DNA of 64,000 nt from Streptosporangiaceae bacterium (lineage in GTDB: Bacteria > Actinomycetota > Actinomycetes > Streptosporangiales > Streptosporangiaceae), in contig JBKQSL010000045.1 in assembly GCA_052143655.1 (NCBI GenBank), forward strand, positions 3,793 through 67,792. The letters are read 5' to 3'. This document shows, one piece after another, positions 1 through 19,108 of the stretch. Within the stretch, counting starts at the first letter, position 1; the number at the start of each line of letters is the position of its first letter. The position numbers and the translations under genes are program-made. Under the pieces are notes generated by a model, which was given only the letters and a program-made list of their open reading frames with translations, made no database searches and was not told where the DNA came from.

Positions 1-29
1 TCACGTACGTGTGCCAACTGGGCTGAATG

Positions 30-125
30 CTAGCCGTGGCAGCGGGGGGCCGTCGCCAAGCCGACCGCGAGCGCCAGCCCGGCTGCGCAGAGCGCAAAGA
101 CTGTACTGATCCTGTGGCGGTTCAT
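30..125 (-). CDS. Short signal-peptide ORF (31 codons); probably the 5' part of a secreted-protein gene that is frameshifted or runs off the window
   Basis: ATG at 125. MNRHRISTVFALCAAGLALAVGLATA looks like n-region + hydrophobic core + AxA-like site. Stop at 30-32 comes right after a homopolymer (plus-strand G6 at 44-49); removing one base keeps the frame open to position 1. Confidence 0.3.
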   Translation of the reverse strand: MNRHRISTVFALCAAGLALAVGLATAPRCHG

Positions 126-206
126 CAGAACCCCCAGTAGCCCCAGCTCGTGACGTACAGCGAGTGCGGTGCGGCCAGCGGCTTGGGCTGGGTCGGCCCA
201 GGACAG

Positions 207-600
207 CTACATGTCGTGGTAGTAGTACCGCCCGTCGTGCCGCCAGGTGTTGCCCGTGGTCACCGTCACCGGGACCGTGTAGTACGGGCAGTCGACCATC
301 GGCGTGCAGCCTGCGCGGACCGCATGCAGGTAGCCCTTCACTGTGGCCGCGCCTGTGTGGTTGTACGGATACCAGTGCAGGTCCGTCAGGAACGGGGAAC
401 CGCCCTGCCCGAAGAGGATCCGGACGGGCTGATCCGCGAAAGTCCAGGCATGGGAGTCATTCAAGACCACCCCCGGGGCATTTGTAGTTCGTGCACTGGG
501 GCAGCGGGACGGCCTGTACGGCGGTCAGCGGAGTTAAGGCGCCGGCGAGCAGGGCGGCAACAGCGAAGAGCACTGCTGCCCACTTTGTGATCCTTATCAT
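207..600 (-). pseudogene. Small secreted protein gene with a 1-nt frameshift in a homopolymer (or assembly indel)
   Basis: SD-like gaggggg ~9 nt before ATG at 600. MIRITKWAAVLFAVAALLAGALTPLTAVQA signal peptide frame stops at 457-459. The next frame (207..470) continues VVLNDSHAWTFADQP... Span is 394 nt = 3n+1, and the junction is the ccccc/gggg run at 470-478. Confidence 0.45.
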
Positions 601-659
601 GATATCTACCCCCTCATGGCTCAGGCTCCGACGCTTGAGCGCCCCCGAATTAGGGACGG

Positions 660-1223
660 ATGTCCTGCCCCCGGACGGACCGAAGGCCCGGCGGCAACAT
701 GCAGGCGCACGATAATGAGCCAGTGGCAGCCAGGAAGCCCGCACGACCGCCCATCACCAGCATCCCGCTCACCAAGCGCACCGGTTACATCCGGTACGAG
801 CTGAACTGGCAGGCCACCGCTTTGCGGATGCAGTATGAGCGCCTGGTTCACCATCTCGGGCTGTCCGAGAACGAGCGGCTTCTCGGCTACATGCAGTCGG
901 TCACCGACCTGGATTACCTGGTCATCACCGCGCACCGGATCTACCGCCTCGCAGACATTGCTAAGGGCTACGGGATTGACCGGGACGGCGAGCTGAAGGA
1001 CGTCATCGGCGCGTTCCGCCGGGACTGGAAGCCGAAGCTGATCAAGATCCGGGATGCGCTGGAGCATCTGGACCACGGCTCGGTGGGCCTGCTGCCGTAC
1101 GAGGGCGACGGCGTCATCACGTTCGCGTCCATCCTTGGTCCCATCGACGTCCACGAGCTGTACAAGGCGGCGGATGAGCTATGCCAGGCGATCAGCCGCG
1201 CTGTCGCGTCTTGCGGGCCGTAA
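660..1223 (+). CDS. Hypothetical protein, possible HEPN-like nuclease fold (R-x4-H motif)
   Basis: Uninterrupted 187-codon ORF (alternative ATG at 699). Contains KLIKIRDALEHLDHG, i.e. R-D-A-L-E-H, matching the HEPN Rx4-6H signature. No other recognisable domain. Confidence 0.55.
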   Translation: MSCPRTDRRPGGNMQAHDNEPVAARKPARPPITSIPLTKRTGYIRYELNWQATALRMQYERLVHHLGLSENERLLGYMQSVTDLDYLVITAHRIYRLADIAKGYGIDRDGELKDVIGAFRRDWKPKLIKIRDALEHLDHGSVGLLPYEGDGVITFASILGPIDVHELYKAADELCQAISRAVASCGP

Positions 1224-2030
1224 TCAGACTTGAGCGAGTAACTACCTCCCGGGTTGTCTCACTATGCGAAACGGTACTTTGCGCAACCAGATAGTTGTGA
1301 AGCACCAGCAGAAGTGCGGAACTGCACTGCCCGTTCTCTTCTTACGCATCAGCGCGCTCGGGCACCCCGTCACCCCCGTGACGTCACTGAACTCTGCGCT
1401 TCGGTCGTAGACCCCTCATCACCAGCGCACTGGCGCATAGCCCTTAGTTACTCGGGAACCGTTAATGAGGCGGGGAAACATCGTGTACGCCATACGCAGT
1501 CAATCAGGTATTGCGCACGGCATAGGCAGCAGCGCCACCGGTAAGGGAAATAGGCATGAACTACCGGCACCACTACTTCGGCTACCTGGACTGTGGGGCC
1601 TGATCATCGTCGCCATCGGCGTCGCCGGGATCAGGTTCACCTGGTACAGGAATCGCAGGTATGAACGCCAGCAGCACGACAGCCCAGGTCGCGAGTAAGA
1701 ACGTGCTGCGCCTCCAGATTCCCGGCCGACGTGCGCAGCCCGAGGGCGGGGCCTGCTACCTACTGCTACTGCAGCGCATAGAAGAGCAGCAGATAAGCAA
1801 GCAAGAACTGCTAAACCACGAGCAGAAGCAGCGGTACGAGAGTCGAACCGGCGACACACTACTAGGACCAGGAACTCTCTCCAACCTGGTGAGCAGCTCA
1901 ATCAAGCCCTCATCCCCTCTTCCACCTGGTCACACTCGCAGTGATCATTAACGTTAATTCTCCGTAGTGGCGGTAATTGGCAGTAATCAGCACATCATTA
2001 TCCTGTCTAACGAAGTTCAGTGCCCTATTT

Positions 2031-2150
2031 AATGGCTGATGAATAACACGCCACGCCGCCCCTCAGCCTCTATTTATGGCATCAGCATGGCAATGATCCC
2101 AATGCCATTAACTCTAATGGCATTAATTCATAGGGGTCATTGCCGTTAAC
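2031..2150. repeat. Cluster of ATGGC(A/T) / TAATGGCATTA motifs (operator- or iteron-like)
   Basis: atggct 2032-2037, atggca 2076-2081, atggca 2087-2092, aatgccatta 2101-2110 (reverse orientation), taatggcatta 2115-2125 (5-bp arm palindrome), cattgcc 2138-2144. Lies in an AT-rich stretch at the 3' end of ORF 2123..2323. Confidence 0.4.
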
Positions 2151-2323
2151 CGGGTGCGCACCCGCATATTGGCGACGGGCAGCCAGTCATTAAGCGTGGC
2201 CAGTCGCAGCCTGCCCGGCCTCATCGACTCCAGCAGCGCCAGCACGTCCTGGTCGTCAGCGCTCCTGCCCGCCTCGCGCAGCCTCTTCTCATCCACCTGC
2301 ACCGTGATCGTGATAATGGACAT
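2123..2323 (-). CDS. Small (66 aa) hypothetical protein, ribbon-helix-helix/VapB-antitoxin-like N-terminus
   Basis: ATG at 2323 inside ORF 2123..2425. MSIITITVQVDEKRLREAGRSADDQDVLALLESM resembles the T-x-x-x-D-x-x-L-L-x-E-A start of small RHH antitoxins. The opposite-strand ORF is Ser-rich shadow. Confidence 0.4.
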   Translation of the reverse strand: MSIITITVQVDEKRLREAGRSADDQDVLALLESMRPGRLRLATLNDWLPVANMRVRTRLTAMTPMN

Positions 2324-2367
2324 CAACCCCCTGACCTGGGAGTTTACGGCGCTATGCACCGAGTGGC

Positions 2368-2787
2368 ATGATGATGCCCGTGCATGAGCCGCACCAGGAC
2401 TGGCACGACCTGCGCTGGTCAGCATGGGTACCGGTCGAGGACATCGAGCGGGTACCAGCCAAGCGAGGCATCTACCGGCTGCGCTGCCAGTCCAGCAAGG
2501 ACAAGCTCATCTACGTGGGCATCAGCGACCGGCTCAGCTCACGGCTGAACGGGTTGCGTCGTGCTCTGCCGAGGGCCCGGCAGCATATGGATGACCAGAC
2601 CTATGTCGGCCACTCAGCCGCCCGCTGCGTTGTCCAGCACCAGGATCGGGGCGAGAGCGTCGAGGTGAGCTGGGCAGAGATCGCCGGCATCGACCGGCGC
2701 GAGCTGATGGGCCTGGAGGTAGACCTGATCGCCGCGTGCCGGGCGGCGTACGGCCACAGCCCAGCGTGCCAGTTCCACGGGGAGTAG
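2368..2787 (+). CDS. GIY-YIG domain nuclease (stand-alone, 139 aa)
   Basis: RGIYRLRCQSSKDKLIYVGIS = GIY-(x11)-YVG motif, followed by conserved Arg cluster (SRLNGLRR) and acidic residue (GLEVDLI). Confidence 0.75.
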   Translation: MMMPVHEPHQDWHDLRWSAWVPVEDIERVPAKRGIYRLRCQSSKDKLIYVGISDRLSSRLNGLRRALPRARQHMDDQTYVGHSAARCVVQHQDRGESVEVSWAEIAGIDRRELMGLEVDLIAACRAAYGHSPACQFHGE

Positions 2788-3271
2788 CCCTGATCAAAGC
2801 AGCATTACGGGACTAACCTCCAACGTTGTCAACGGTGTGCAGCATGATCCTTTAGGAGTTTTGGCCGGTCAGTATGGGTGTTAGGCGCCCAGGGCGCATA
2901 GGCGGTTCCTGGGGCCTTGACGGGCGCCACAGCGCCTGTCAGGGGGGGCGGGCCATCAGCCGATATAGGCACTGAGGCGCTACAGGGGCACACGGAGGCC
3001 ATTACGGCGATAGTCAAGTTTAGGCAAAATCGAAGAGGCTACCGGTGCGCAGGGTGATGGCAGGACTACCCGTAATTGCGGTTTATTAATTAAATCCCCA
3101 TAACTTTATAGGACATAGATAGTTAGCACAGGTAGTTAGTTTGAAACAAGAAGGGGGCACCGTTAAGCCGGTCTTGCCGAGGAAAGGGCACCAGGAGATT
3201 TTCGCAGATCCCGCCTTCCACCCAGGTGACAGTGCCCGGATTCTGGACAGTACGGGGCTTATCCGGGGGGG

Positions 3272-3973
3272 TTACATATCGCCCATCAGCCCGCGCAGCC
3301 TCCTGATCCGCTCGTCAAGGTAGCGGGCCGCCTCGTAGATTTGCTCAGCGGCAGCGGCCGGGCTCGCTCGATCAAGCATGATCGCCGCATCCATCAGCGC
3401 CTCCACCGCTCCCGGCCTCAGTGTCCTTTTCAGCGTGTCAGCGGCCAGGTACAGGGCGTCGGCCGTGCTGGGATTGATATGCCGGGCCGCCTGGTGCAAG
3501 ATCAGCGCGGCTTCAGGGTCTATCAGCTCGATCTCCGCCAAGGCGTCACGGATCGCCTGCTTAGTCGCCTCGGTCCCCTGCTGGATCATGTCGCGGAGGG
3601 TGTCTTCGGTCAGGCCGGACATCCCCTTGAGCTGAGCAATCGGGCCTTCCTCACGGCTGGCCTTCCACTGTTCGAGGACCTCGATGGGGTAATCCTCGGG
3701 CTTCACCCGGTCCACGTACTGATGGTGCGGAGTGCAGAGGTAGATGAGGTTGCACCAGTGCCGCCGGTCCTCGTTGCTCATCGCCGGCACATACCGGGGG
3801 CCGTTGGGCCGGGCTGCCCTGATATGGGCGATCTCCAGGTTGTTGACAGGAGTGCCGTTGACAATAACGGTGACCGGCGCGCTGCAAGGAGGATCGGGCC
3901 AGTAGCAGGTCCCCTGGCCCAGGGCTGCAAGAGCTGTCAGCGTAGCGCGGGTATATCCGCGCGGATCAGGCAT
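3272..3973 (-). CDS. HNH endonuclease domain protein with C-terminal all-helical extension (233 aa)
   Basis: GTCYWPDPPC...NNLEIAHIRAARPNGPRY...NLIYLCTPHHQYVD = Cys pair + H-N-H core. C-terminal ~130 aa are Ala/Leu-rich helical. Confidence 0.8.
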   Translation of the reverse strand: MPDPRGYTRATLTALAALGQGTCYWPDPPCSAPVTVIVNGTPVNNLEIAHIRAARPNGPRYVPAMSNEDRRHWCNLIYLCTPHHQYVDRVKPEDYPIEVLEQWKASREEGPIAQLKGMSGLTEDTLRDMIQQGTEATKQAIRDALAEIELIDPEAALILHQAARHINPSTADALYLAADTLKRTLRPGAVEALMDAAIMLDRASPAAAAEQIYEAARYLDERIRRLRGLMGDM

Positions 3974-4013
3974 TACATCCTCCGGGAATGTCTAATTGAG
4001 ATTCACGGACCGT

Positions 4014-4463
4014 TTAAGGACGGAGAATGCTGATCACGCCCACTACAGCGCTTACGCATCCTGCTGTCACGCTGATTATTCCTGCGATGCCTCCCATTTG
4101 CTCGATCTTGGTTTGTTCCAGTCTGACCAGAACGGCCACGTCACTAGGAGGGTGGTCATGAAGAGAGCGAGCTTGCCCCGGATTTTTCGTCAGGTTGCCG
4201 GCGCGCATGCGGTGCCAGCCCAACCGCGCGTACATTTTCGCGAGCGTATGATCCGTGCTTCCTCTGCTACAACCGAGTAGCAAACCGTTGACGCTGTTCT
4301 TGCATGGCTTTCTGTTGAGCGTAGTCACACCGCATGTCGTCGGGAGACTGAACAGTATCAGCCATCCAATGATCCCGGCCACCGCTCCTGTAGATAGTAA
4401 GCCCCACCCGATATTACCGGCAGCGAATGCCAGCACAGCGCACACGATGAACCCGGCAAGCAA
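4014..4463 (-). CDS. Membrane protein (149 aa), first gene of a two-gene unit with the HNH gene
   Basis: Two N-terminal TM segments (FIVCAVLAFAAGNIGWGLL, AVAGIIGWLILFSL), Cys-containing loop, C-terminal TM (GIAGIISVTAGCVSAVVGVISIL). Same strand, 40 nt upstream of HNH gene. Confidence 0.6.
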   Translation of the reverse strand: MLAGFIVCAVLAFAAGNIGWGLLSTGAVAGIIGWLILFSLPTTCGVTTLNRKPCKNSVNGLLLGCSRGSTDHTLAKMYARLGWHRMRAGNLTKNPGQARSLHDHPPSDVAVLVRLEQTKIEQMGGIAGIISVTAGCVSAVVGVISILRP

Positions 4464-4635
4464 TCCTAAAAGTGTGATGCCTTTTGCCGTGGCGTCATCT
4501 CCTCGGGCTCAGCCCGCTGTGTCATAGCACCCCCTGCGCTCGCCAGGAATAATGCACCGCACTCAGGTACCGGGGTAACTCTCCCGATGAACGGCTCATG
4601 CTCGGAATCTAACCCGGCCTGGAGATTCCGGCTAG

Positions 4636-4770
4636 TGGCTCTTTAGCGTTGCGCAGAGCAGTGCCGTAGGGGCGCTGGATGAGCTGGACCGGCTGGCGTC
4701 GCTGCTGGAGCGCGGGCTGCTGACCCGTGAGGAGTTCGAGGCAATGAAGGCGAAGATCATCGCAGGCTGA
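4636..4770 (+). pseudogene. SHOCT-domain remnant (no start codon)
   Basis: Open frame after TAG 4633-4635 reads ...ALDELDRLASLLERGLLTREEFEAMKAKIIAG*, a typical SHOCT C-terminal motif. No ATG/GTG/TTG in frame, so it is likely the tail of a disrupted gene. Confidence 0.45.
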
Positions 4771-4827
4771 GCGCGTCCCGGCAGCCTGATTTGCCCGGCG
4801 TGCACTGGCGGGCGGACCATCGGGGTC

Positions 4828-5712
4828 ATGGGCAACTTCTCGAAGCACCCCAGGGCTACGGAGCAGCAGCCGCCTGACGCGCCCGCGCTGCCGTCCGGCA
4901 CGAAGCCAGTGCCCCTTAGCGGCCCCGTGCACGATTCGTCCATGACAACGGGGAAGTACGTGCCCAGTCGCGATCCACGAAGGCCGCCTAGGGAGAAATT
5001 TCCGAGTAGCAGAGAGCGCACCGACCGGAAGCCCTCGTTTGAGCGGGAGGTCCCGATCGAGCAGATGCCACCTGAGGGCAAACAGGAGATGGCGCCTGAG
5101 GTCAATCAGGAGATAAAGCCGGTAAAGGATGCGTCCAGCAACGGGCAGCTACGCAGTCCCGCGACAGGTCCCGTGACGAAGGGCGTCGAGGACACGGCCG
5201 TCAACTGCCTGACTTCGGCACTGGAGACGGTTGCGAAACTCGCCGTCCCCCATCTCGCCCCGGTCGTCACCATGTGCGAGTTCGTGATCAAGGGCATCGA
5301 CGCGTGGAAAGGCCTGGACTCTACCGGGGGAAAGTCGATCACACTTCCGGTGCCGATTCCTGGCCTACCTGGTGACTTTAGCCTGAACGTGCGTTTCGAC
5401 CTGACCGAGGACTCCAACCACTCAGGCTTCTCGGCGTCGGTCAGCCCGCCTGGCCCCCTAGCCGGCGCGTTCTCGCTCAAGCCTCTGGATCAGCCAGGCA
5501 GCCAGCAGCAGGCGGAAACTACCAAGGCGGGCGCAGAGCCCATCAAACCGTACGCCGGGTTGCCCCTTGACCAGCAGCGGGTGTTGCGCGCCGCTGAGCA
5601 GCAGATCGGGCCCGAGCTGGCTGCGAAGATGCCGGACCGGAGTCGGCGGCGCCTGCTGCTGGGCTACGACCCTGAATTGCGGTTCTGTGTGTGGGCGTGC
5701 GCTGAAGCCTGA
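4828..5712 (+). CDS. Hypothetical protein (294 aa), disordered charged N-half, unknown C-terminal domain
   Basis: Long ORF with coding-like composition; no recognisable motif. Confidence 0.5.
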   Translation: MGNFSKHPRATEQQPPDAPALPSGTKPVPLSGPVHDSSMTTGKYVPSRDPRRPPREKFPSSRERTDRKPSFEREVPIEQMPPEGKQEMAPEVNQEIKPVKDASSNGQLRSPATGPVTKGVEDTAVNCLTSALETVAKLAVPHLAPVVTMCEFVIKGIDAWKGLDSTGGKSITLPVPIPGLPGDFSLNVRFDLTEDSNHSGFSASVSPPGPLAGAFSLKPLDQPGSQQQAETTKAGAEPIKPYAGLPLDQQRVLRAAEQQIGPELAAKMPDRSRRRLLLGYDPELRFCVWACAEA

Positions 5713-5876
5713 GGACAGGCCGGGCATTCGTGGCCGCCTTGCGCAGGTGCCCCTCCTCGTCGGGTCATGCCGCGTCCGTCAGATTGAGGCGGTCCGGTGG
5801 GGTGCTGGCGGGCACCGGCACGGAGGCGCCCGTAACTACGAGCGGTAACGCCGGCCGGGTAGTACCAGGTGGGGTG

Positions 5877-6085
5877 CGGGAGACGTCGCGCGGGACATCG
5901 TGGGGGACGCGTGGGACATGCGGGACATGTCCCACACTGGACGCGAGCGGGACGACCCTGAATTAATGAATTGCTATACGCGCGGAAGCCACGATGATGA
6001 TTTTTAATACTTTCGGGGCTGGCAATGCATGAGCGATCATTGCAGCGCGCTCTTGGCGATGTCCCACTGTCCCACCATGTCCCAC
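5877..6085. repeat. Two opposed iteron arrays (GTGGGACAT / ATGTCCCAC) flanking an AT-rich core; candidate origin of replication of the island
   Basis: Left: gggacat 5892-5898, ggggac 5903-5908, gtgggacat 5911-5919, palindrome gggacatgtccc 5922-5933, gggac 5949-5953. AT-rich core ~5958-6020 (gaattaatgaattgctatac...gatgatgatttttaatac). Right: atgtcccac 6059-6067, tgtcccac 6068-6075, atgtcccac 6077-6085. Immediately 3' of the replicase gene. Confidence 0.55.
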
Positions 6086-6117
6086 TCCCTGTTTTATTAA
6101 CAAATTCCGGTGCCCAG

Positions 6118-8496
6118 TCACGCATCCGCCACCGCCGGGTGGTAGGTATCGTCGTCACTCAGCGTGACCTTTTCTTCGTCCAGCAGCAGGTCCAGCGCGT
6201 CATCGACGTACTTCCTGTCGCGGCTGGCCGCTGCGTGCTGCAGCAAGCGGCGCTTCATCGGGCCGTCCTTCTTCAGCTTCCGCACGATGACGCCGGCCAC
6301 CCGCTGCACCTGCTGGTCCGCGTACTCCTCCTCGCTGGCGCGCACGCGGGTGGCGGTGAGGACAGCGCCCTCGGCGTTGAGCGCGTGCCGCGCCCGCGCC
6401 GCCCGCGCGTTCTTCTCCTGCACCGCGTCGATGCACTTCTGGCGGGTGTTGCGGGACACCTCCATGAGGATCCCCGCCAGGTCCCAGTCCTCGTCGCTGA
6501 TCTCCCCCGGCTCTTCGCTGGAGATGATGGCGATGGCGGCGGCGGCCTTCAGCCGGCACAGCATCGCGTGGCCTTCCAGCCCGGCCTCCTTCCCGGAGTT
6601 GCGCGCGTGGTGATCGGCTGCCACTTCAAGGATGGCCTTGTCGCACACGCGCAGGTCGCGGTAGGTATCCAGCTCGCGGATATGCGGCGGGGCGGCCATG
6701 TCCAGCGTCTTGATCTCGCTGTCGCCGTTGCGGATGCGGGCGAGCACAGCGTCAGGATTGAACGGCGGCCCGTCCGGGTCGGTGCCCGGAAGCCATAAGA
6801 ACCGCTGGGGGGTGCCGCCGGCGCTGTCGTCCAGCAGCACGGCGGCGACCTCGGGCTGGATCGCGCAGACCAGAGTCAGCCGGTAGGAGTCCTGCTCCAC
6901 CGTCAGGTTGCGGGCCTGCTCGGCGTTGGTGAACCCGATGCGCTCCCCCATCCAGGCCGACCGGAGCAGCGGCAGCAGCGTCGCGCCCTTCCGCTCGGCC
7001 AGCCGGGTGATGATCTCCACCTCCTCGACGGCCACGAGCAGCGTGTCGGTGATGCGCTTCAGCTCCCCGCCTTCACGCCGGACCATCGCGCGGACGATGC
7101 CTTCCCCGGTGCCCGCGTTGCTGATGTGCGCCACCCCGGGCACCATCTCGGCGGCGACCCGGGCTGCGTTGCCCTTGCCCTGGCCGGATGAGCCGACGAT
7201 CCCGGCGAACATGTTCAGGCTCTTCCGGGTCCCGACGATGCCGGGGATCGTCAGCCGGTGGTCGGTCAGCGCGACGGCGCGGGCCATCACGCAGCCGAGC
7301 AGTGCCCACGGGGGGACGCCGCGCTCCCGTGCCACGTCCCGGATGATCTTTAAGTTGGGCCGGGCGTCCCAGAACTCAGCTTCCCGGTCCGCGTGGTCAA
7401 GCGCCGGGTAGCGGATCTTGCCGTCGCGCTCCAGCGCCTCCTTGCTCCACTTGCGCGCGTCGTCGGGCAGCTCGTCTGCGAACTTCGCCGCCACGCGGGT
7501 GATCTTCTTGCGGAGATCATCGTCAGTGAACGGATCGTCGGAGCGGGCGTCGGGGTTATCCCGAGCGGTGATGTCGCAGATCTGCCGCACGGTGGCGAAG
7601 ATCTTGGACTGGTCATGGGTTTTGCCCCATATGCCCCGGATAACCCGCGTGATGGTGATGTCGTGCGGGAGGGGGAACGGGATGCCACCGGCCAGTAGCT
7701 CCTCGAACCCCGGCAGCGGCTCGCCGCTGTCGTACACGGCGTCGGATGACGGCTTTGACCACAGGTCGGTGATGAACTGCGCCAGCCTGCGCCCGGAGAC
7801 GTCGCCGACCGGCGGCGGCCCGTCCGGGAACCGCACCCAGCGGTACGGCCGGACCACCCCGTCCGCCTTGGACTTCTTCTCGGTCGGCGGGATGATCAGC
7901 ATCCCGATGCTCTCGTTGCCGTCCCGCGAGCCCTTCAGGTCCAGCCCGGGAAACTTGTCCTGCCCGAACCCGTCCTTGGACCCGATGCCTAACGGCGCGG
8001 TCAGGTAGTGCCGGCCTCCGCTGGGAGTGACCGTCTCCCCGTACACCGTGGGCATCTCGCCGCCGAGATGGTCAGCCAGCTTGTCCAGCGAGCCGGGGCA
8101 CTTATAGGAGTCCTCGTCCAGCCCGTTGAAGATCTTCATGACTGCGCACAGGCCCATGTTCCGGCCGGGCTTCCACCGGTCCACTACGGCCGGGTCGCCC
8201 TTGGCCTGCTTCCAGGAATCGCCGCCGGCGTACCTGCCATGATCATCGAAATAGCAGATGAACAGCGGCACGCCCCAACGCGCGAGTTGCCTGGCACGCT
8301 CCAGATCCTCACGCTGCTGGCTGGTTAGGCCGCTGCCGCTCAAGATCTCGCCGGCGGCAAGCTGGTGGGCGCTCTTCCTCACCGGGCCACCCCCGCCCGG
8401 GTCGGGCTGGTGCGGGGGCAGTGGCCTGGTAATAACCTGTTTCTCCGGTAATTCCTGAACGCCCGGCCGGTAATTGGTCTGCTGTACAATATTCAC
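6118..8496 (-). CDS. Bifunctional primase-polymerase (PrimPol) fused to DUF3987-like P-loop helicase/replicase (792 aa)
   Basis: PrimPol motifs: GLDED (DxD), VTPSGGRHYL (sGG-H), GLDLKG...IIPPT. Central/C-terminal Walker A AGIVGSSGQGKGNA. Confidence 0.85.
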   Translation of the reverse strand: MNIVQQTNYRPGVQELPEKQVITRPLPPHQPDPGGGGPVRKSAHQLAAGEILSGSGLTSQQREDLERARQLARWGVPLFICYFDDHGRYAGGDSWKQAKGDPAVVDRWKPGRNMGLCAVMKIFNGLDEDSYKCPGSLDKLADHLGGEMPTVYGETVTPSGGRHYLTAPLGIGSKDGFGQDKFPGLDLKGSRDGNESIGMLIIPPTEKKSKADGVVRPYRWVRFPDGPPPVGDVSGRRLAQFITDLWSKPSSDAVYDSGEPLPGFEELLAGGIPFPLPHDITITRVIRGIWGKTHDQSKIFATVRQICDITARDNPDARSDDPFTDDDLRKKITRVAAKFADELPDDARKWSKEALERDGKIRYPALDHADREAEFWDARPNLKIIRDVARERGVPPWALLGCVMARAVALTDHRLTIPGIVGTRKSLNMFAGIVGSSGQGKGNAARVAAEMVPGVAHISNAGTGEGIVRAMVRREGGELKRITDTLLVAVEEVEIITRLAERKGATLLPLLRSAWMGERIGFTNAEQARNLTVEQDSYRLTLVCAIQPEVAAVLLDDSAGGTPQRFLWLPGTDPDGPPFNPDAVLARIRNGDSEIKTLDMAAPPHIRELDTYRDLRVCDKAILEVAADHHARNSGKEAGLEGHAMLCRLKAAAAIAIISSEEPGEISDEDWDLAGILMEVSRNTRQKCIDAVQEKNARAARARHALNAEGAVLTATRVRASEEEYADQQVQRVAGVIVRKLKKDGPMKRRLLQHAAASRDRKYVDDALDLLLDEEKVTLSDDDTYHPAVADA

Positions 8497-8584
8497 TAGG
8501 ACTTGACTCCTCGCGGTGGTTTCGGTCTACCTCTGGTTAGGACGGGTGAACGGGCCGGGGAACGCCTCCCCGGCCCGGTTCCCT

Positions 8585-8926
8585 TTAGGCAGCAGCCACC
8601 AGCCGCTTAGCGGCGATGGATGGTACGAGAAGGTGCACGATCTCGTGCTTGTTGTGGCACCGGCCGCCACATACGCTCTTCGGCAGTGAGATTTCGGCCA
8701 AGGCCGACTGCGTGTCTTCGAGGCTGGGCCAAAGGCTGACCGATAAGACCCGGCACCATGCGAGGACGGCCCACTCACCCTCGCCCGATACCCAGCAGTG
8801 CCTCGGCCACTGGCACCGGGCGGCGACATTGTAAGTCTGGTGCTTTACCGGGCAGCGCCGGTGCGATAGCGGCCGGTATAAGTTCTCGGCCTCGGGGTTG
8901 AACAGCTTGTCGTTGTCGAGGTACAT
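8585..8926 (-). CDS. Hypothetical Cys/Trp-rich protein (113 aa) between xis-like and replicase genes
   Basis: Same-strand ORF in the xis->replicase transcription unit; no recognised family. Confidence 0.45.
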   Translation of the reverse strand: MYLDNDKLFNPEAENLYRPLSHRRCPVKHQTYNVAARCQWPRHCWVSGEGEWAVLAWCRVLSVSLWPSLEDTQSALAEISLPKSVCGGRCHNKHEIVHLLVPSIAAKRLVAAA

Positions 8927-8996
8927 TGATGGTCTCCAGTTAGTTGATGTCCGACCAGGCCCGGGGCTCCACCCCCGGGCTTAGTCATTTCTGGGG

Positions 8997-9212
8997 TCAG
9001 GCAGCGATCAGCCGCCCTGCCGTACTGGTGTCCCGCTCCCGCTGGGCCAGCCAGGCGTCCACCTCGCTGCGCCGGTAGTAGCGCTTGCGCGGGGTCAGCA
9101 GGAAGCTCGCCGGGCCGAACTGTTCGCGGCGCCAGCGGTCGAGCGTCTGCCGGGACACGCCGAGATAGTCCATTACCTCGGCGGGGGTCATGAAGTCCGG
9201 GCTGTCGTGCAT
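8997..9212 (-). CDS. xis: Excisionase-family / AlpA-like helix-turn-helix DNA-binding protein (71 aa)
   Basis: FMTPAEVMDYLGVSRQTLDRWRREQ...RKRYYRRSEVDAWL is the MerR-superfamily excisionase HTH pattern. Confidence 0.8.
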   Translation of the reverse strand: MHDSPDFMTPAEVMDYLGVSRQTLDRWRREQFGPASFLLTPRKRYYRRSEVDAWLAQRERDTSTAGRLIAA

Positions 9213-9300
9213 GAAACCTCCTCAGGGGCTCACTTATATGGTAGCGGCGGTGAGCGTGAAAAAGGTAACGCGGGCCCCGCGCTGACCGCCGGGCGTGCTT

Positions 9301-9353
9301 ATGTACCCCACATTGTTGAGGGCAAGAGAATATGTACCCCATATGAGGTACAT
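9301..9353. promoter_or_regulatory. Repeated ATGTACCCCA boxes plus inverted GGTACAT in the divergent promoter region upstream of xis (operator candidate)
   Basis: atgtacccca at 9301-9310 and 9332-9341. The second copy forms atgtacc-ccatatga-ggtacat (9332-9353). Related gtaccc at 9364-9369. Confidence 0.4.
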
Positions 9354-9635
9354 GACCGGGGCAGTACCCGAGTTCACCGGCTCTCGGTGACGTTCTGACT
9401 ACGCTGCGCCGGTCGTTCCGGGAAAGTACCCGCCTGGGTTTGACAACGCCTAAGCCGCGCCGGGTACGGTGCCCCTGACAAGTGAATGAGGGAACGCGGA
9501 GAGCGGTCCATCCTGGATTTAAGTCCCTTCGCGATCCGTGTTCTCGGGCGTGCGTGGGGCGCGCTACTGTAAACACCGAGCCGATGGGGGCCCCCACACC
9601 CCATCGGCTCCTCATGCATTTAAGGCAGTATCACG

Positions 9636-10166
9636 GTGAATCAGTTTCCGGTCCGCCCGTATGTCGGCGTCGGGCTCCCCATGTCATCCAGGACCGCGCA
9701 TGTGATCGAGGGCGCGGTGATCGGCGTGGTGGCGGGCAACGCGCTGGCCCGCTGGCCGCGCCTGCGCTACGTCGCCGCGATCATCTGCCTGCTGCTCGCC
9801 GCGTACTTCGTCGTGGCGGGGATCCACTTCGGCGAGGCTGCCGGCAGCTTGGTGTACGCGCTCGTGCTGGCCGGCATCGCCGCGCTGTTCATCCGGTCGG
9901 GTTGCAAGGGCATCGCGAAGATGAAGCTGAACCGCACACCCGGATGGATGGCCGCTCTGCCGACCGGTCAGGCAGTGCCTTCGGGCCCCGACGTCAGCTT
10001 CAAGATCACGAGCGTGGTCCCGGACGAGGCGACGGTCCGGTCCGACGCCGCCCGCACCTGGGCGACCGCGATCCTGGAGTTGGAGAACGGGCACACGCAC
10101 TCGGCGCTGCTGGAGTCAGATGGCCGCCAGGTGCGCTGGCAGGCCGCCCCGGCAGGTTCGTGCTGA
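9636..10166 (+). CDS. Membrane protein (176 aa)
   Basis: GTG start (alt ATG 9681). Three hydrophobic helices (AVIGVVAGNALA, YVAAIICLLLAAYFVVAGI, LVYALVLAGIAALFI) and a soluble C-terminal part. Confidence 0.5.
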   Translation: MNQFPVRPYVGVGLPMSSRTAHVIEGAVIGVVAGNALARWPRLRYVAAIICLLLAAYFVVAGIHFGEAAGSLVYALVLAGIAALFIRSGCKGIAKMKLNRTPGWMAALPTGQAVPSGPDVSFKITSVVPDEATVRSDAARTWATAILELENGHTHSALLESDGRQVRWQAAPAGSC

Positions 10167-10244
10167 ACTGGCACGCTACTCCATTCCCGCCGAACCTTTC
10201 TGAACTACTTCGTACAGGCGTACCATTCGCCTTGGGGGACGTTC

Positions 10245-10856
10245 ATGGCGCTACGTTTCAATCCGCCGCCAGGCTGGCCGCCTGCACCTCCCGGGTGGAC
10301 GCCGCCGCCAGGCTGGAGTCCCGATCCGTCGTGGCCGCCGGTACCTCCGGGCTGGCAATTGCTGGTGCTGGACGCGGCGCCCAGCGCGCAGCAGCCAGCC
10401 GATAGTCCCGAGCCCCTGGTGCAGCAGCAGCGGGCAGTACCCGTCACCAGCAGCTCGGTCCGGCCGCCCTTCGTAACACGCGGGTGGGGCAGGCTCAGTC
10501 CCTGGGCTAGGCCATTCGCGCTGATCGGTTCGGCGGTCGTGCTGATCGTCGTCGTTGTAGTGCTCGCGCAGCCGGGCACGCCGTCGCCGCCTCCCGGCGG
10601 CTGGTACGCGGCGGGCGTGCAGTACGAGCACGCCAACGACGTGGCGCAGGGCAACGCGCGTCTCATCGGCCCGTTCAGCATGCTGGGGCACGAGTGCCGC
10701 CAGCAGCTCGCGTGGGTTGAGGCGGGTCACCCGACGCTGGTTCACAACCCGCCGGTGCCCCCGCTGAGTGCTAAGCAGAGCTGGCTAAACGGCTGCCAGG
10801 CAGGCTATTTGCACGACCATCCAGACCAGCAGGTCATTAACGGGCTCTTCCAATGA
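10245..10856 (+). CDS. Single-pass membrane protein with N-terminal PPGW repeats (203 aa)
   Basis: NPPPGWPPAPPGWTPPPGWSPDPSWPPVPPGW, then TM ALIGSAVVLIVVVVVLA. Stop overlaps next start (ATGA 10853-10856). Confidence 0.6.
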   Translation: MALRFNPPPGWPPAPPGWTPPPGWSPDPSWPPVPPGWQLLVLDAAPSAQQPADSPEPLVQQQRAVPVTSSSVRPPFVTRGWGRLSPWARPFALIGSAVVLIVVVVVLAQPGTPSPPPGGWYAAGVQYEHANDVAQGNARLIGPFSMLGHECRQQLAWVEAGHPTLVHNPPVPPLSAKQSWLNGCQAGYLHDHPDQQVINGLFQ

Positions 10857-11665
10857 ACCGCCTGATCTGGCCCGTTGCGATTGTCCTGGCGGCGCTGATC
10901 CTCTCGGCAGGGGTGCTGACCGCGTACTCGCTGCGCCACCATCCGCCCGCCAGCAACGGGCCTAGCCACCCTGCTGTGGCCGCTTCGCCGTCCGCCTCGT
11001 CACCGCACCCGATTAACGCCTCCAAGGCGGCGTCAACCCTGGAAATGGACCCGACTCTTGCGCTGCGCTATGCCGAGAACGGCGTCGGCGGGTGCCTGCA
11101 ACAAGCCTGGGACAACGCGGGGTATGCCAACATGTTCGATGAGTACGCGGGCAGCGGCGTGGTGCAGTTCAGCACCGGCACCCAGCAAGATCCCACCGGC
11201 AGCACCCAGGCGCGCACGCTGATCTCCGTCACGGTTCACCAGAACGGCACGCTATCCGCGAATGCCGCCCTGGAGCACTGGGGTTGCCAGCCGTACCGCT
11301 TCCGCCCACGGGGCGGCGTCACGGCTCCGTCGGCTCCGACCATGCCCCGGCCGCCCGGCCTGGACAAGTCCGGCCCCCTTGACGTCGGCTGTGCTACCCA
11401 GGGGAACACGGCAACCGTGACGTTCTACAACCCGGGCAGTTCCACCCAGACGGTCGGGTCATTCACGCTGGACTGGGAGTTCTACAACAGCGACCCTGAC
11501 AACGGAACGCCGCAAGGCGAGGACACGTACAGCGGCCGGTGGCCCGTCAGCTCCACCAACATCGCTACGGTCACCCTCAGCGTGCCAGCGATGCTGTCGG
11601 GCGACTCCTCGTGTGCGGTAGCTGGATGGAGTCAGTACGGGGTCTCGGTGCAGCCGGGCGGCTGA
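10853..11665 (+). CDS. Signal-anchored extracytoplasmic protein (270 aa)
   Basis: MNRLIWPVAIVLAALILSAGVLTAY anchor; translationally coupled to upstream gene; no known domain. Confidence 0.6.
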   Translation: MNRLIWPVAIVLAALILSAGVLTAYSLRHHPPASNGPSHPAVAASPSASSPHPINASKAASTLEMDPTLALRYAENGVGGCLQQAWDNAGYANMFDEYAGSGVVQFSTGTQQDPTGSTQARTLISVTVHQNGTLSANAALEHWGCQPYRFRPRGGVTAPSAPTMPRPPGLDKSGPLDVGCATQGNTATVTFYNPGSSTQTVGSFTLDWEFYNSDPDNGTPQGEDTYSGRWPVSSTNIATVTLSVPAMLSGDSSCAVAGWSQYGVSVQPGG

Positions 11666-11707
11666 CTCAGCTCGCAACAAGCTGTAACGCGACTACGCCG
11701 CCGATCC

Positions 11708-12292
11708 ATGGACGTTACGAAGCTCTTGCTGGACGCCATGGATAAGTACAACTCAGACGGCGGAACCTATGACGAACCGCTGGCGGAGGTCATATCCCGG
11801 GTCCGGGTGAACGGCTGCATGACCAAGCTGGACCTGCTGGCGATGATCACCTGGAAGCGCATCCGCACCGCCGCGCCGTGGGTTTACGACCTGCTGACCA
11901 CTCAGGATGCGAAGGTGCGCGACTGTACCGAGGCGGCGTTCCAGCCCGGGTTGTCCGACCAGCAGCGCATCGACGCGCTGAAGGACATCCCTGGGTGCAG
12001 GGGCGGCGCGTCCATGGCCACGGTCGCGCTGTGCGCATACGATCCGGTGGAGTTCGGCATCATGGATGACCGGGCACTGGATGCGCTTGAGGATGACCCG
12101 CTGGAGATAGACCTGCACCGGAGGCGCAGGGGCCTGACCTTGCGCTACCTGATCAAGGTTCGTGAACTCCGGGACATGCTGGCGCAGGTCCGGACGGGCG
12201 TCACCGCCCGCAACTTGGACCAGGCGCTCTTCGTAATTGGCGACCCGAAGCGGCGCCGGGTTACGGGGCCGAGAAGTTCGTCCGAAACTTAA
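11708..12292 (+). CDS. Hypothetical soluble protein (194 aa)
   Basis: Clean ORF with coding-like composition; no motif I can name confidently. Confidence 0.55.
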   Translation: MDVTKLLLDAMDKYNSDGGTYDEPLAEVISRVRVNGCMTKLDLLAMITWKRIRTAAPWVYDLLTTQDAKVRDCTEAAFQPGLSDQQRIDALKDIPGCRGGASMATVALCAYDPVEFGIMDDRALDALEDDPLEIDLHRRRRGLTLRYLIKVRELRDMLAQVRTGVTARNLDQALFVIGDPKRRRVTGPRSSSET

Positions 12293-12960
12293 GACCCAGG
12301 CGGCTTGTTGCGGGTGAAGAACAGGTAGAGCGTGATGGAGGTCAGGGCCCCGCCGAACGCCTGCCCTATTGGTCCCGACCCCGCTGGCGGCAGCAGGTGC
12401 AGCAGCCCGAGGTTCGCTCCGCCGACCGGCACGACGATCGTCCAGAACATCTCCCGGCTGGTCAGGCTGTGCAGCCCTTCGGTGACTGCCTTGCGCACGG
12501 ACTTCTCCAACTCAGCTGGAGTCGGAGACTTGGTGACCTCGAAGATATCGACGGCGCCGCCGGTCTCTGCCAGGACCTTCGGTTGAGGGATAGTAGTAGT
12601 GGCTTGAACGATCGCCGGGTAGACGGTGGCACTGGTCGTCAGCGTGCCCTCACCTCGCAGGACTGCCGCTGCCTGCCACACCTTCTCCACATCGCGCATG
12701 TCCACGAACTCGCTGACCTGCCGCTGAATCTCGCTGGCGTGGCGCGACAGCGACTCGATCAGGTCCTTGTTCGCCTGGTATGCCTTCAGCGCGGGCTCGG
12801 CTAGCTCGTACAGCTTTCGAACCTGCTCAGCCAGCCGCCGGATCTCCTCCTCGTCCACGGCGGCGATCCTACCGGCGCCCGGCGACAGCGCCCGGCCGTC
12901 CGGCGCGCCGGACTTGTTCTGTTCGAGTCGCTGGTGATGGCAGGGAACGTAGTTGCTCAC
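12289..12960 (-). CDS. Hypothetical protein with coiled-coil N-half and C-terminal hydrophobic segments (223 aa)
   Basis: EEEIRRLAEQVRKLYELAEPALKAYQANKDLIESL...; C-terminal FWTIVVPVGGANLGLLHLL and GGALTSITLYLFF. Stop codons of this and 11708..12292 overlap in cttaag. Confidence 0.5.
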   Translation of the reverse strand: MSNYVPCHHQRLEQNKSGAPDGRALSPGAGRIAAVDEEEIRRLAEQVRKLYELAEPALKAYQANKDLIESLSRHASEIQRQVSEFVDMRDVEKVWQAAAVLRGEGTLTTSATVYPAIVQATTTIPQPKVLAETGGAVDIFEVTKSPTPAELEKSVRKAVTEGLHSLTSREMFWTIVVPVGGANLGLLHLLPPAGSGPIGQAFGGALTSITLYLFFTRNKPPGS

Positions 12961-13032
12961 CTACTCATAGCCCCAGGTCAGGCCGTCGATTCGACACCCC
13001 GTGATGGCAGGAATCCGCAAATTCTGATGGCA

Positions 13033-13063
13033 AAGCCCCGTCCGGCTGTCCGAAACGGGGCTT
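13033..13063 (-). terminator. Stem-loop downstream of tRNA-Asn (9-bp stem, 13-nt loop; no clear U-tract)
   Basis: aagccccgt (13033-13041) pairs with acggggctt (13055-13063). Confidence 0.35.
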
Positions 13064-13089
13064 CTAGCTGGGCAAACACAATATTAAGA

Positions 13090-13165
13090 TGGCTCCCGCG
13101 ATAGGACTCGAACCTATAACCTGCCGGTTAACAGCCGGACGCTCTGCCGATTGAGCTACGCGGGA
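13090..13165 (-). tRNA. asnT: tRNA-Asn (anticodon GTT), CCA encoded
   Basis: Reverse complement tcccgcg-ta-gctc-aatcggca-gagc-g-tccgg-CTGTTAA-ccggc-aggtt-atagg-ttcgagt-cctat-cgcggga-g-cca folds as a cloverleaf; anticodon loop CTGTTAA. Confidence 0.95.
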
Positions 13166-13463
13166 CTGCACGGCGCCGAGGTGCGGTACTGGCTTGCAGG
13201 CCCTTCCTCGCCGCGGCCACCAGGGTAGCGTAGCCGGCACTATGCCGGAGCGCATGCCGCCTCCGGAGCGCATAACCCGCCGCGTGGCGGGCATGACCGG
13301 AAGGTCCGGCGCGTTTCGGGCGGGCGGCGGGAACGAGAACTCCCCGGGAACGTCCGGGACCCCGCGGCCACTCCGGGCCGGGACAGCTCAGCCCTGCACT
13401 GCCCGGGCCCGCCCCAGGCCGGCGCGGCAGTGCAGGGAACGAGACTTGCGAGAGAAGGTTTCT

Positions 13464-13854: not shown

Positions 13855-15009
<1,155 letters not shown>

Positions 15010-15170: not shown

Positions 15171-17111
15171 TTATACCGAACCCGAGGCTCGGTCAGAGAG
15201 CACCTTGCGGCGCTGCTCCAGCGCCACCAGATCACCGAACATCCGGTTGTACTCGGCCAGCTGATCCACCGGGCTGAGCCGCTGCAGCCGGGACTTGATC
15301 GCCGCGATCCGCCGGCTCACCGCCAGTTCCTCGACCCGTGCCAGCACGGCCTCGGCGTAGCGCGCGTCCGGCTCGCCCTCGGTGCCCGGCGCGTGCAGCG
15401 CATCGACGGCCAGCTGAGTCAGCATGGCGGTCACCCGGTCGTCAGGCGCCGCGGTCCGCAGCCGCTCGGCCCACTCGCGGCCGCCGGCCGCTCCCCCGGT
15501 GCCGCCGCAGGCGGCGATGACCTCGAACACGGTGCCGTGCACCGGCGCGGTGAACGCCTGCGCGCCGAGCGCGTCGAAAGCGGGCCCGCACAGCGCCGGG
15601 CGCTGCACGGCCAGCTTGAGCGCCTCCCGCTCCACCTGGATAACCGGATCGTTAAGGTCATACGCGGTATCCGCTGGGCGAGGCTGAGGGACCAGACCAC
15701 TTCCGGCGCCGTGCTGCTCTGGCTTGCTGGCCGAGTGCCTGCGCCTGCTCTGCCGCTGTGCTGCCCGAAGGTGCTCCCCAATCCTGGAGAGGACCAATTC
15801 CTCGTCCATCAAACCGAGCCAGCGATCGACCAGCCCCGCGTACACCTTGCGCCTGGCGGTGTCCTTAATGCGAGCGATAAGAGCGGCGGCCGCGTCCAGG
15901 CCTGCAAGGCGACCTTCGACAGTCTCTGGGTCAAAAGGCATCATGGCCCGCCGGATTGCAAACTCGTAGAGAGGTACACGACTCGCGATAAGGTCACGAA
16001 CTGCTGCCTCGCCCTGCTTGAGCCTCAGGTCACACGGATCCAGACCATCGGGCTGGATCGCCACGAACGTCTGCGTTACAAACTTTTCCTCGAATTCGAA
16101 GGCTCGCAGCGCAGCTCTGTTGCCTGCCGCATCACCGTCGAAGGTGAAGATGACATCTCCGCGCTCCCAATCGGAGTCACCAAGCAAGCGTCGAATGATC
16201 TTGATGTGCCCCTCGCCGAACGACGTGCCGCTGGTCGCGACCGCCGTGGTGATGCCGGCCAGGTGGCAGGCCATCACGTCGGTGTAGCCCTCGACGATCA
16301 CCGCCTGGCGGCGCTGGGCGATGTCGCGCTTGGCCAGGTCCGCGCCGTACAAGACAGTGCTCTTCTTGAACAGCGGGGTCTCCGGGGTGTTCAGGTACTT
16401 GGCCCCGTCGTCGTCGGCACGCAGCTTGCGGGCGCCGAACGCGATCACGTCCCCGGACAGGTCCCGGATCGGCCAGATCAGGCGACCGCGGAAACGGTCG
16501 ATCAGGCCCCGGCGGCCCTGCGTGGCCAGGCCGCCGGTGAGCAGCTCGTGCTCGGTGAAGCCCTGGCCGCGCAGGTGCCGGGTCAGCGCCTCCCACTCGG
16601 CGGGTGCGTAGCCGACGCCGAAGTGCTGCGCATCCTCCAGCGTGAAGCCCCGGCCGGACAGGAAATCCCGGCCGGGCACGGCATCGGGGCCGGCCAGCCG
16701 TTCGGCGTAGAACTCACTGGCGGCCTTGTGCGCCGCCAGGAGGCGGCGGCGCTGGCTCTGCTCCCGGCCGGGGACGTGCCCGCCCTGCTCGTAGCGCAGG
16801 TCAATCCCGGCCCGGGCCGCCAGCCGCTCGACCGCCTCGGTGAACGTGAGGCTGTCGATCTTCTGCACGAAGCTGATGACGTCGCCGCCCTCAGAGCAGG
16901 AGAAGCAGTACCACAGGCCGCGTGCCGGGGTCACGTTGAACGACGGCGTCTTCTCGTCGTGGAACGGGCACAGCCCTTTCAGCGAGCCGCCGCCGGCGCT
17001 GCGCAGCTGCAGATACTCGCCGACCACCTCGTCAATCGCCGAACGCTCGCGCACCAGTGCGATGTCCTCGTCGCGGATCCGGCCTGGCATCCACCGCCTC
17101 CGCTTCTTCAT
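15171..17111 (-). CDS. dnaG: DNA primase DnaG
   Basis: CHC2 zinc finger CPFHDEKTPSFNVTPARGLWYCFSC; TOPRIM VIVEGYTDV. Alternative start ATG 17090 (MPGRIRDEDI). Confidence 0.95.
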   Translation of the reverse strand: MKKRRRWMPGRIRDEDIALVRERSAIDEVVGEYLQLRSAGGGSLKGLCPFHDEKTPSFNVTPARGLWYCFSCSEGGDVISFVQKIDSLTFTEAVERLAARAGIDLRYEQGGHVPGREQSQRRRLLAAHKAASEFYAERLAGPDAVPGRDFLSGRGFTLEDAQHFGVGYAPAEWEALTRHLRGQGFTEHELLTGGLATQGRRGLIDRFRGRLIWPIRDLSGDVIAFGARKLRADDDGAKYLNTPETPLFKKSTVLYGADLAKRDIAQRRQAVIVEGYTDVMACHLAGITTAVATSGTSFGEGHIKIIRRLLGDSDWERGDVIFTFDGDAAGNRAALRAFEFEEKFVTQTFVAIQPDGLDPCDLRLKQGEAAVRDLIASRVPLYEFAIRRAMMPFDPETVEGRLAGLDAAAALIARIKDTARRKVYAGLVDRWLGLMDEELVLSRIGEHLRAAQRQSRRRHSASKPEQHGAGSGLVPQPRPADTAYDLNDPVIQVEREALKLAVQRPALCGPAFDALGAQAFTAPVHGTVFEVIAACGGTGGAAGGREWAERLRTAAPDDRVTAMLTQLAVDALHAPGTEGEPDARYAEAVLARVEELAVSRRIAAIKSRLQRLSPVDQLAEYNRMFGDLVALEQRRKVLSDRASGSV

Positions 17112-17997: not shown

Positions 17998-18053
17998 TCC
18001 CGGTGAGTGGTCAGGTCCATGTGCGGACGGGTTACCGAGATCATGGAATCCGG
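17984..18053 (+). repeat. Imperfect-palindromic ~70-bp element, copy 1 (REP/MITE-like)
   Basis: cccgagttccatgatcccggtgag...gttaccgagatcatggaatccgg. Arms are reverse complements; ~90% identical to 19109-19179. Overlaps the 3' ends of the convergent HAD and DUF559 genes. Confidence 0.75.
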
Positions 18054-19015: not shown

Positions 19016-19108
19016 GGGCAGAGCCTGACGGCCCCGGCTGACCGCCCGCACGGCCTCTTCCCCCCTGTGAATAACCTCCCCGACCAGGCCGCTACCTGTG
19101 GACAGCAG

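Follow-up and report, generated by a model that had tools for sequence, protein, structure and literature searches.

Biochemical work on a mobile element that bears an integrase and is flanked by a tRNA gene has established its DUF3987 protein as a 5'-3' helicase and as the partner of a primase-polymerase (PrimPol) (PMC11724360). Within the Actinomycetota, SatelliteFinder returns calls of the phage-inducible chromosomal island (PICI) type in Mycobacterium and classes phiRv1 and phiRv2 with the PICIs (PMC10085698). A first-pass annotation of the DNA studied here considered integrated satellites to be poorly described in this phylum, which is no longer so (PMC10085698, PMC10690885, PMC12822802). 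Here we looked at a 64,000-nt stretch of a Streptosporangiaceae bacterium genome, referred to throughout as the window (positions 3,793-67,792 of contig JBKQSL010000045.1, assembly GCA_052143655.1), the left part of which is a horizontally acquired genomic island inserted at a tRNA-Asn gene. Its kind is known, namely tRNA-associated islands that combine a PrimPol-DUF3987 replicon with defence-like cargo; we take it for an ordinary genomic island, which may have decayed, and not for a demonstrated phage satellite. The reading we favour, to which we give a probability of roughly 0.45, is that of a mosaic or decayed island that has no integrase and retains an intact replicon at a tRNA-Asn hot spot.

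The tRNA-Asn(GTT) gene (13090-13165, minus strand) is the sole tRNA that ARAGORN finds in the window and scores 68 bits against Rfam family RF00005; an Rfam scan of the window found no other known RNA element. Its 3' end, at 13090, forms the right boundary of the island. G+C content is 0.56-0.68 over 1-13000 compared with 0.70-0.75 over 16-64 kb, and the open reading frames (ORFs) to the left of the tRNA, mapped by gene calling guided by G+C at third codon positions (GC3) together with the gene calls on identical public contigs, are mostly orphans. An exact-protein look-up identified a 17,106-bp contig of GCA_052144355.1 (L004) that is 100% identical to window positions 1-13314 and adds 3,792 bp on the left. 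Its G+C content stays low to the end of the contig and the island is therefore at least 16.9 kb long. Atypical composition, absence from relatives (see below) and a boundary at a tRNA 3' end are together what is expected of a tRNA-associated island, and window positions 1-13089 plus at least 3.8 kb to their left are accordingly assigned to one; that everything left of the tRNA 3' end differs in character from the core had already been noticed in the first reading of the sequence. Just past the tRNA 3' end a G+C-rich, terminator-like hairpin can be read on the minus strand (13033-13063), the sequence of which is particular to the studied genome and is lacking in relatives. A plasmid origin was also considered and rejected, as PLSDB gave no DNA match and only two weak protein matches.

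The same site was surveyed in relatives by scanning metagenomes with the sigma-70-family factor encoded on the core side, to the right of the tRNA (13855-15009), which returned 80 loci at 60-95% identity. In most of those that extend far enough tRNA-Asn lies downstream of the sigma gene, as a rule at 0.55-1 kb, and in none of the 80 are island proteins encoded downstream of the tRNA. In 23 related loci the sequences diverge immediately past the CCA end of the tRNA (...GGGAGCCA). Two loci (L129 and L139) have a major facilitator superfamily (MFS) transporter gene directly after tRNA-Asn and represent empty sites, for which the first-pass annotation had proposed looking among close relatives. 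Elsewhere the site is occupied: in L100, L133, L138, L143, L144 and L148 the tRNA is followed at once by a PF00589 tyrosine integrase or a fragment of one and then by unrelated cargo. In L103 (sigma factor 89% identical; L103:6616-16025) an HTH_17 gene and a DUF3987 helicase gene lie directly against tRNA-Asn, with a WhiB gene further on, and in L114 (3693-6032) an HTH_17 gene and then replication-type genes are found near it. L103 and L114 hold a different element, with a common HTH_17 gene and conserved tRNA-proximal sequence. The survey therefore identifies tRNA-Asn, beside the sigma-70-family factor gene and dnaG (15171-17111, after which housekeeping genes follow), as a busy integration hot spot, and the island as strain- or species-specific.

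The core of the island is a replication module of the actinophage or satellite type that looks intact and functional as judged from its sequence. It comprises a minus-strand operon of three genes, for a helix-turn-helix (HTH) protein (8997-9212), a small protein (8585-8926) and a PrimPol-helicase (6118-8496), followed by an iteron/AT-rich block, an order which had been recognised at first reading and which is upheld by GC3-supported gene calls, Pfam, PHROGs and the repeats themselves. The first gene encodes a 71-residue DNA-binding protein with an HTH_17 (excisionase-family) domain, matching PF12728 and phrog_66 ('excisionase and transcriptional regulator'), both at 2.6e-13. Its earlier designation as AlpA/Xis-type is sound as far as this domain goes and is otherwise overstated, because the protein scores 23.9 bits against TIGR01764 ('excise'), under the 28.8-bit cut-off, and the AlpA family is not among its Pfam matches. 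Nor is it established as an excision gene: the HTH_17 domain is all that points that way, and Gordonia phage Jojo24, too, has a small HTH gene, an unrelated one, in front of its PrimPol gene and far from its integrase. The second ORF, for a Cys-rich orphan protein of 113 residues (GC3 0.77), was also called as a gene in the public contigs and has no family in Pfam, PHROGs or NCBIfam.

The third gene encodes a putative replicase of 792 residues that matches phrog_11515 ('DNA polymerase/primase') at 4.8e-62 over residues 311-770. Its N-terminal part, at about residues 55-245, has the catalytic motifs of an archaeo-eukaryotic primase (AEP) Prim-Pol domain (DxD at D127xD129 and sGGxH at sGG.H164) and is predicted to take up the Prim-Pol fold; its C-terminal part has the Walker A (G438-K441) and Walker B motifs of a probable P-loop helicase of the DUF3987 type. 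The match of the replicase itself to PF13148 (DUF3987) falls below cut-off at 5.9e-5, and it does not reach PF09250 (Prim-Pol). In an alignment of the protein with 12 relatives D127, D129, G161 (of sGG.H), S437, G440, K441 and E492 are invariant and G438 nearly so, with PF09250 recognised in 7 and PF13148 in 9 of the 13 sequences. The AlphaFold model is confident for residues 55-245 only, and the four best fold matches in the PDB, all weak and obtained with a low-confidence model, are the Prim-Pol of pRN1 ORF904 (two entries), CAPP and NrS-1. Searching solved structures by sequence yielded nothing of use. Over its C-terminal 400 residues the protein is 35-38% identical to the 'DNA primase/polymerase' of the temperate Gordonia phages Jojo24, Tarzan and Reyja; the corresponding proteins of the Firecracker group of Mycobacterium phages fall in the same range. 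The family is large, with 3,897 cluster representatives at E<=1e-3 and 1,450 at E<=1e-30; these counts come from an exhaustive HMMER search. A word-indexed protein search gave 7 matches, even with an alignment as query.

An origin-like block (5890-6105) lies directly 3' of the replicase gene, inside a non-coding interval (5713-6117). The 9-mer ATGTCCCAC occurs there in four exact and three one-mismatch copies, all within 5890-6085, with no further exact copy across the 64-kb window, and forms the top short-repeat cluster in 1-13100. The copies make up two opposed arrays, three on one strand and four on the other, that bracket or flank AT-rich stretches at 5950-6010 and 6088-6105. A full-length relative on a Logan contig (L180) has the same layout right past its PrimPol stop codon, with ACCGGGTA three times, an AT-rich stretch and then four more copies, and in an IMG/VR provirus (L036) GGGACACG arrays surround an AT-rich stretch at the same place. 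Since the arrangement of replicase gene followed by iterons recurs in both, the module gives the impression of being complete and of the usual form for its family. What the sequence shows is its gene content, its catalytic motifs and a layout of the origin that relatives have kept, whereas every activity is inferred. The island appears to have what a satellite should have in this respect, a primase/replicase of its own with an adjacent candidate origin.

Upstream, the HTH operon is separated from a divergent gene for a 176-residue protein by a 420-bp intergenic control region (9213-9635). Repeat finding detected GGTAC-containing repeats and palindromes at 9300-9313, 9331-9353, 9356-9370 and 9418-9432, which may act as operators; a perfect hairpin with 12-nt arms lies at 9578-9610 and a GAGGAGG ribosome-binding site precedes the HTH_17 start codon. 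The divergent gene, on the far side of these operator-like repeats, codes for a hydrophobic protein that is not repressor-like. One public contig starts inside the hairpin; this was considered as a possible element end and rejected, since it is probably an assembly artefact. We propose that the control region would act as a regulated promoter for the HTH_17 protein, the 113-residue protein and the PrimPol-DUF3987 helicase, and that the replicase, once bound to the iteron arrays at 5890-6085 with their opposed orientations, would melt the adjacent AT-rich DNA, unwind the origin DNA and prime and extend new strands.

Mobility, transfer and packaging functions were looked for in the island part of the window and in the 3.8-kb extension, 16.9 kb altogether, by scanning the credible ORFs against Pfam, PHROGs, NCBIfam and PADLOC. 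None of the ORFs matches the recombinase families PF00589, PF00239 and PF07508 or the FtsK/SpoIIIE Tra family PF01580, and the scans found no Spd-like, NUDIX or Kor gene. Terminase, portal, capsid, tail and lysis genes were likewise not found with Pfam, PHROGs and hidden Markov models (HMMs) built from related elements. Six-frame searches with HMMs for the integrase, TerL, two portal types and major capsid protein of related elements, and for the integrases of the tRNA-Asn site, detected no integrase or morphogenesis gene and not even a remnant, and pseudogenes of these kinds were therefore rejected. No packaging or hijack gene (TerS, Sid/Psu/Delta, Cpm/Ppi or an own capsid module) was recognised, although orphan ORFs remain, and there is no recognisable master repressor among the island genes. 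In the search for an attachment (att) repeat, no second copy of the 3' segment of tRNA-Asn, TTCGAGTCCTATCGCGGGAGCCA, was found at up to 3 mismatches in the 64 kb, nor any in the 17.1 kb of L004, and mismatch patterns, repeat finding and blastn-short gave nothing above chance. The initial observations that 1-13089 holds no integrase, transfer or capsid gene and that the window holds no further copy of the tRNA segment thus withstand systematic searching. The suggestion that the integrase and att end might lie left of the window finds no support over the 3.8 kb of the extension, which has neither.

These searches bear directly on the possibility of a complete prophage or an ordinary actinomycete integrative and conjugative element (AICE), with its structural or transfer genes to the left of the window. 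Set against the definition of Ghinet et al. 2011 (PMC3218068), the island has a Prim-Pol-type Rep, which beside RepSA and RepAM is one of the three accepted AICE replication types, and has neither Int nor FtsK/SpoIIIE Tra, so that its exclusion from the AICEs by the first-pass annotation was correct; the same authors regard such cases as remnant or mobilisable elements at best. The similarity of the replicase to proteins of temperate Gordonia and Mycobacterium phages speaks for a prophage, yet no virion structural, packaging or lysis gene is present in the 16.9 kb. AICEs are typically 9-24 kb in size, so most of one should already be visible over this distance, where FtsK/SpoIIIE, Spd-like, NUDIX and Kor genes are all missing. 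The genes of the extension, moreover, are a DUF6650 gene and an operon of small unknown genes instead of genes for phage morphogenesis. We consider either identity very improbable.

Two considerations favour a mosaic or decayed island. Relatives of the replicon keep an integrase beside the replicase gene and other occupants of the tRNA-Asn site keep theirs against the tRNA; in the studied island five orphan genes fill the space of an integrase, and the left 10 kb are gene-poor and contain a gene fragment. The element would then have lost, or become separated from, its integration end, and would be the remnant of a small temperate or PICI-like element that is unable to excise by itself. Several points weigh against this reading. 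The replicon shows no sign of decay, the replicase ORF being of full length with its motifs intact. The left end of the island lies beyond the 3.8-kb extension and an integrase could be located further left. L103 has no integrase within the 9.3 kb available, so elements with an integrase at their far end may use the tRNA-Asn site. Population evidence is of no help either, since public contigs that are identical and collinear speak neither for nor against mobility.

The same points lend weight to a different view, in which the sequence belongs to a larger integrative element that is still intact and of which it shows the end next to the tRNA. Such an element could be a mobilisable element, a PICI-like satellite or a small temperate phage; its integrase and attR would be located over 3.8 kb beyond the left edge of the window, and excision would depend on that distal integrase, with the HTH_17 protein as directionality factor. 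Low G+C continues to the end of the 17.1-kb contig, on which neither the MFS transporter of the empty sites nor any other core gene appears. The replication operon and origin look intact, and L103 and L114 show HTH_17 and replication genes (in L103 a DUF3987 helicase) next to the tRNA with no integrase adjacent. The ends of L004 and of a Logan contig, L005, fall within 100 bp of each other (L004:17009-17106), at about 17.0-17.1 kb from tRNA-Asn, and a 27,378-bp contig from another metagenome-assembled genome (MAG) probably ends at the same point; that two independent contigs, and probably a third, end together hints at a repeat or a strain-variable junction there. Against a larger intact element, the integrase of compact relatives lies 1-2.6 kb from the helicase region and not 10 kb or more away, and the integrase-bearing inserts at tRNA-Asn have it against the tRNA. 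The left 10 kb, gene-poor, of the lowest G+C and with a SHOCT fragment and many tiny ORFs, are unlike a compact functional element, and there is no structural or packaging gene in 16.9 kb. We regard this as the main alternative and as a close second to the favoured reading, though less likely than not.

The island genes also occur on the 27,378-bp contig and on one of 108,524 bp from a Streptosporangiaceae MAG (tags ACLQDY_02745-02800). Nine public contigs were compared, and each is collinear with the window or with L004; eight are 100% identical and a core contig (L015) 99.8%, so that nothing in them points to an excised form. JGI metagenomes, scanned for exact DNA of the leftward continuation, gave no match. 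In one MAG the core and island contigs share a 90-bp overlap just upstream of the tRNA (window 13225-13314).

A further explanation would make the missing integrase a feature of the element and not a loss: a functional 'hitcher', that is, a self-replicating island or satellite that is excised, amplified in place or packaged by means of a recombinase and virion supplied in trans, with a phage or another element at the same hot spot as its helper. The intact replicon is of the type used by PICI-like and capsid-forming PICI (cfPICI)-like actinobacterial elements, defence-like cargo is typical of satellites, and integrases specific for the tRNA-Asn site circulate in relatives. There is, however, no att repeat on which a trans-acting integrase could work, no TerS, pac/cos-associated or capsid gene, and no known helper, and the public contigs are all collinear. 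We think this unlikely, and it shares with the AICE or prophage reading a lack of positive support. It is similarly improbable that an integrase-less, replication-competent island of the Actinomycetota amplifies its defence-like cargo in place on induction or is mobilised in trans. Were the replicon active, this would be one more self-replicating chromosomal island with candidate anti-phage genes, from a poorly studied actinomycete family; the finding as it stands is a routine island that opens no new question.

The remaining genes of the island are mostly orphans. In the position where other occupants of the site have an integrase lies an ORF for a 223-residue orphan protein (12289-12960, minus strand, GC3 0.82), which was rejected as an integrase since it matches nothing in Pfam, NCBIfam, PADLOC or PHROGs. 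Next to it, and divergent from the HTH operon, is a plus-strand block of four genes (9636-12292, GC3 0.79-0.90) encoding orphan proteins of 176 (9636-10166), 203 (10245-10856), 270 (10853-11665) and 194 residues (11708-12292). The first three have no family match in the library scans and appear hydrophobic, with membrane-like segments predicted from their sequences; the fourth has a weak match to phrog_24538 (1.2e-5), the only match in Pfam, PHROGs or NCBIfam among the remaining island ORFs.

To the left of the origin, positions 1-5712 contain sparse small genes on mixed strands. A 294-residue orphan with a low-complexity N-terminal part (4828-5712, plus strand, GC3 0.78) has no family in Pfam, PHROGs, NCBIfam or PADLOC. 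It is preceded by a 28-residue SHOCT-domain fragment (4684-4770, plus strand; PF09851), called as a gene on an identical public contig, which is probably a gene remnant and thereby suggests gene decay. The cargo includes a predicted HNH-type nuclease of 233 residues (3272-3973, minus strand) that matches PADLOC model PDC-M68A at 8.6e-23, HNH 'Effector' models and phrog_29098 (1.3e-8); it resembles a candidate anti-phage defence protein and is the sole match in the PADLOC scan, which took ten of the larger ORFs (seven in the window and three in the leftward extension). An ORF of 139 residues (2368-2787, plus strand) has a weak GIY-YIG signature (PF01541, E 0.0024), below cut-off. The leftmost part is a low-G+C stretch (207-2323) of small orphan ORFs without family matches, supported by gene calls on public contigs, of 87 (207-470, minus), 174 (699-1223, plus), 96 (1661-1951, plus) and 66 residues (2123-2323, minus).

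The leftward 3.8 kb code for a DUF6650 protein, a 358-residue protein and three small overlapping ORFs, one of which has a Cys-rich, HNH-like N-terminal part. The 358-residue protein (L004:14499-15575, 1.2-2.3 kb left of the window) has no Pfam family and is a widespread uncharacterised actinobacterial gene product, for which soil metagenomes and MAGs contain more than 170 relatives at cluster level, those listed being 50-76% identical; their contexts are non-syntenic, and a scan of genome contigs with the protein returned non-syntenic relatives only.

Some repeats were also observed elsewhere in the window. A repeat of about 110 nt is present twice (17980-18089 and 19105-19214), the copies being 78% identical, and 89% over the first 84 nt; each holds a hairpin with 20-22-nt arms, the arm being found nowhere else in the 64 kb, and together they flank a gene for a 364-residue protein (18041-19135, minus strand) with a weak AbiEi-type HTH. 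A run of about seven GCCATC hexamers lies at approximately 40820-40860, and the 8-mer GCCCGTAC / GCCAGTAC is repeated six times in 250 bp at approximately 54830-55150.

How the island relates to known elements is best seen through its replicase, which is all that it shares with the IMG/VR elements, L044, L180 and Jojo24. The replicase relatives in IMG/VR comprise 80 loci, all of high G+C. At least 13 of these are small proviruses of 8-14 kb (among them L027, L036, L043, L045, L049-L051, L055, L058 and L063) with one gene order: a tyrosine integrase on the opposite strand, in most cases one or more small ORFs, the PrimPol-helicase and then genes for TerL, a portal of the SPP1 type, two small proteins, a major capsid protein of the HK97 type and a connector-like protein. 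From the integrase it is 1-2.6 kb downstream to the helicase region of the replicase. This architecture is like that of a cfPICI, and it may resemble phiRv1 and phiRv2 of M. tuberculosis. In common with the island the compact elements have a homologous PrimPol-DUF3987 replicase (33-40% identity in the helicase half), small genes upstream of it and high-G+C hosts, and L036 in addition has its iteron origin right after the replicase gene. They differ in possessing integrase, TerL, portal, scaffold-like, capsid and connector genes.

A second kind of relative is represented by L044 (L044:71-13656), a 13.5-kb PICI-like element at tRNA-Ala that lies between two perfect direct copies of a 52-bp segment of the tRNA 3' end and carries an integrase next to the tRNA, a PrimPol-helicase and a P27-type TerS-like gene (PF05119, 1.2e-4). 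It resembles the island in being integrated at a tRNA and in having a homologous replicase preceded by small ORFs; the 52-bp att repeat, the integrase, the TerS-like gene and a protein of 1165 residues have no counterpart in the island. This large protein looks tape-measure-like, with a probable cell-wall hydrolase part at its C-terminus, and L044 is reminiscent of the mycobacterial EPIP satellites (PMC12822802). In L180 a large serine recombinase gene is followed by two small ORFs, the PrimPol and iterons. Among phages, Jojo24 has a small HTH gene directly before the gene for a 770-residue 'DNA primase/polymerase' (gp52-gp53) that is 38% identical to the island replicase over 419 residues. 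It is, in contrast to the island, a complete phage of 40.6 kb with structural, lysis, integrase and repressor genes, the latter two 8 kb from the PrimPol gene amid a complete set of virion genes, and its HTH protein has no detectable similarity to that of the island. The satellite-like logic which the first-pass annotation saw in the locus is therefore upheld in part: the replicase has relatives in PICI-like and cfPICI-like elements and in temperate actinophages, but the island shows no satellite-defining feature.

AICEs have in common with the island their location at tRNA genes and, as an accepted module, a Prim-Pol-type replicase (PMC3218068, PMC2440964), and are set apart by their Int, FtsK/SpoIIIE Tra, Spd, NUDIX and Kor genes. 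The AgaPP-AgaPH elements of Bacteroidota match the island in their replicon of PrimPol and DUF3987 helicase, a flanking tRNA gene, HTH genes and defence-type cargo, which in their case is gained and lost (PMC11724360). Their PrimPol and helicase are separate proteins and their integrase is conserved, whereas the island encodes both domains in one fused protein and shows no integrase. Overall, a single PrimPol-DUF3987 family, with a conserved arrangement of replicase gene and iteron origin, is common to three kinds of element of high-G+C Actinobacteria: temperate actinophages, integrase-bearing satellite-like elements that are bounded by att sites or carry a capsid module, and integrase-less islands like the one studied here. 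Comparison across this replicase family may be more useful than the island itself.

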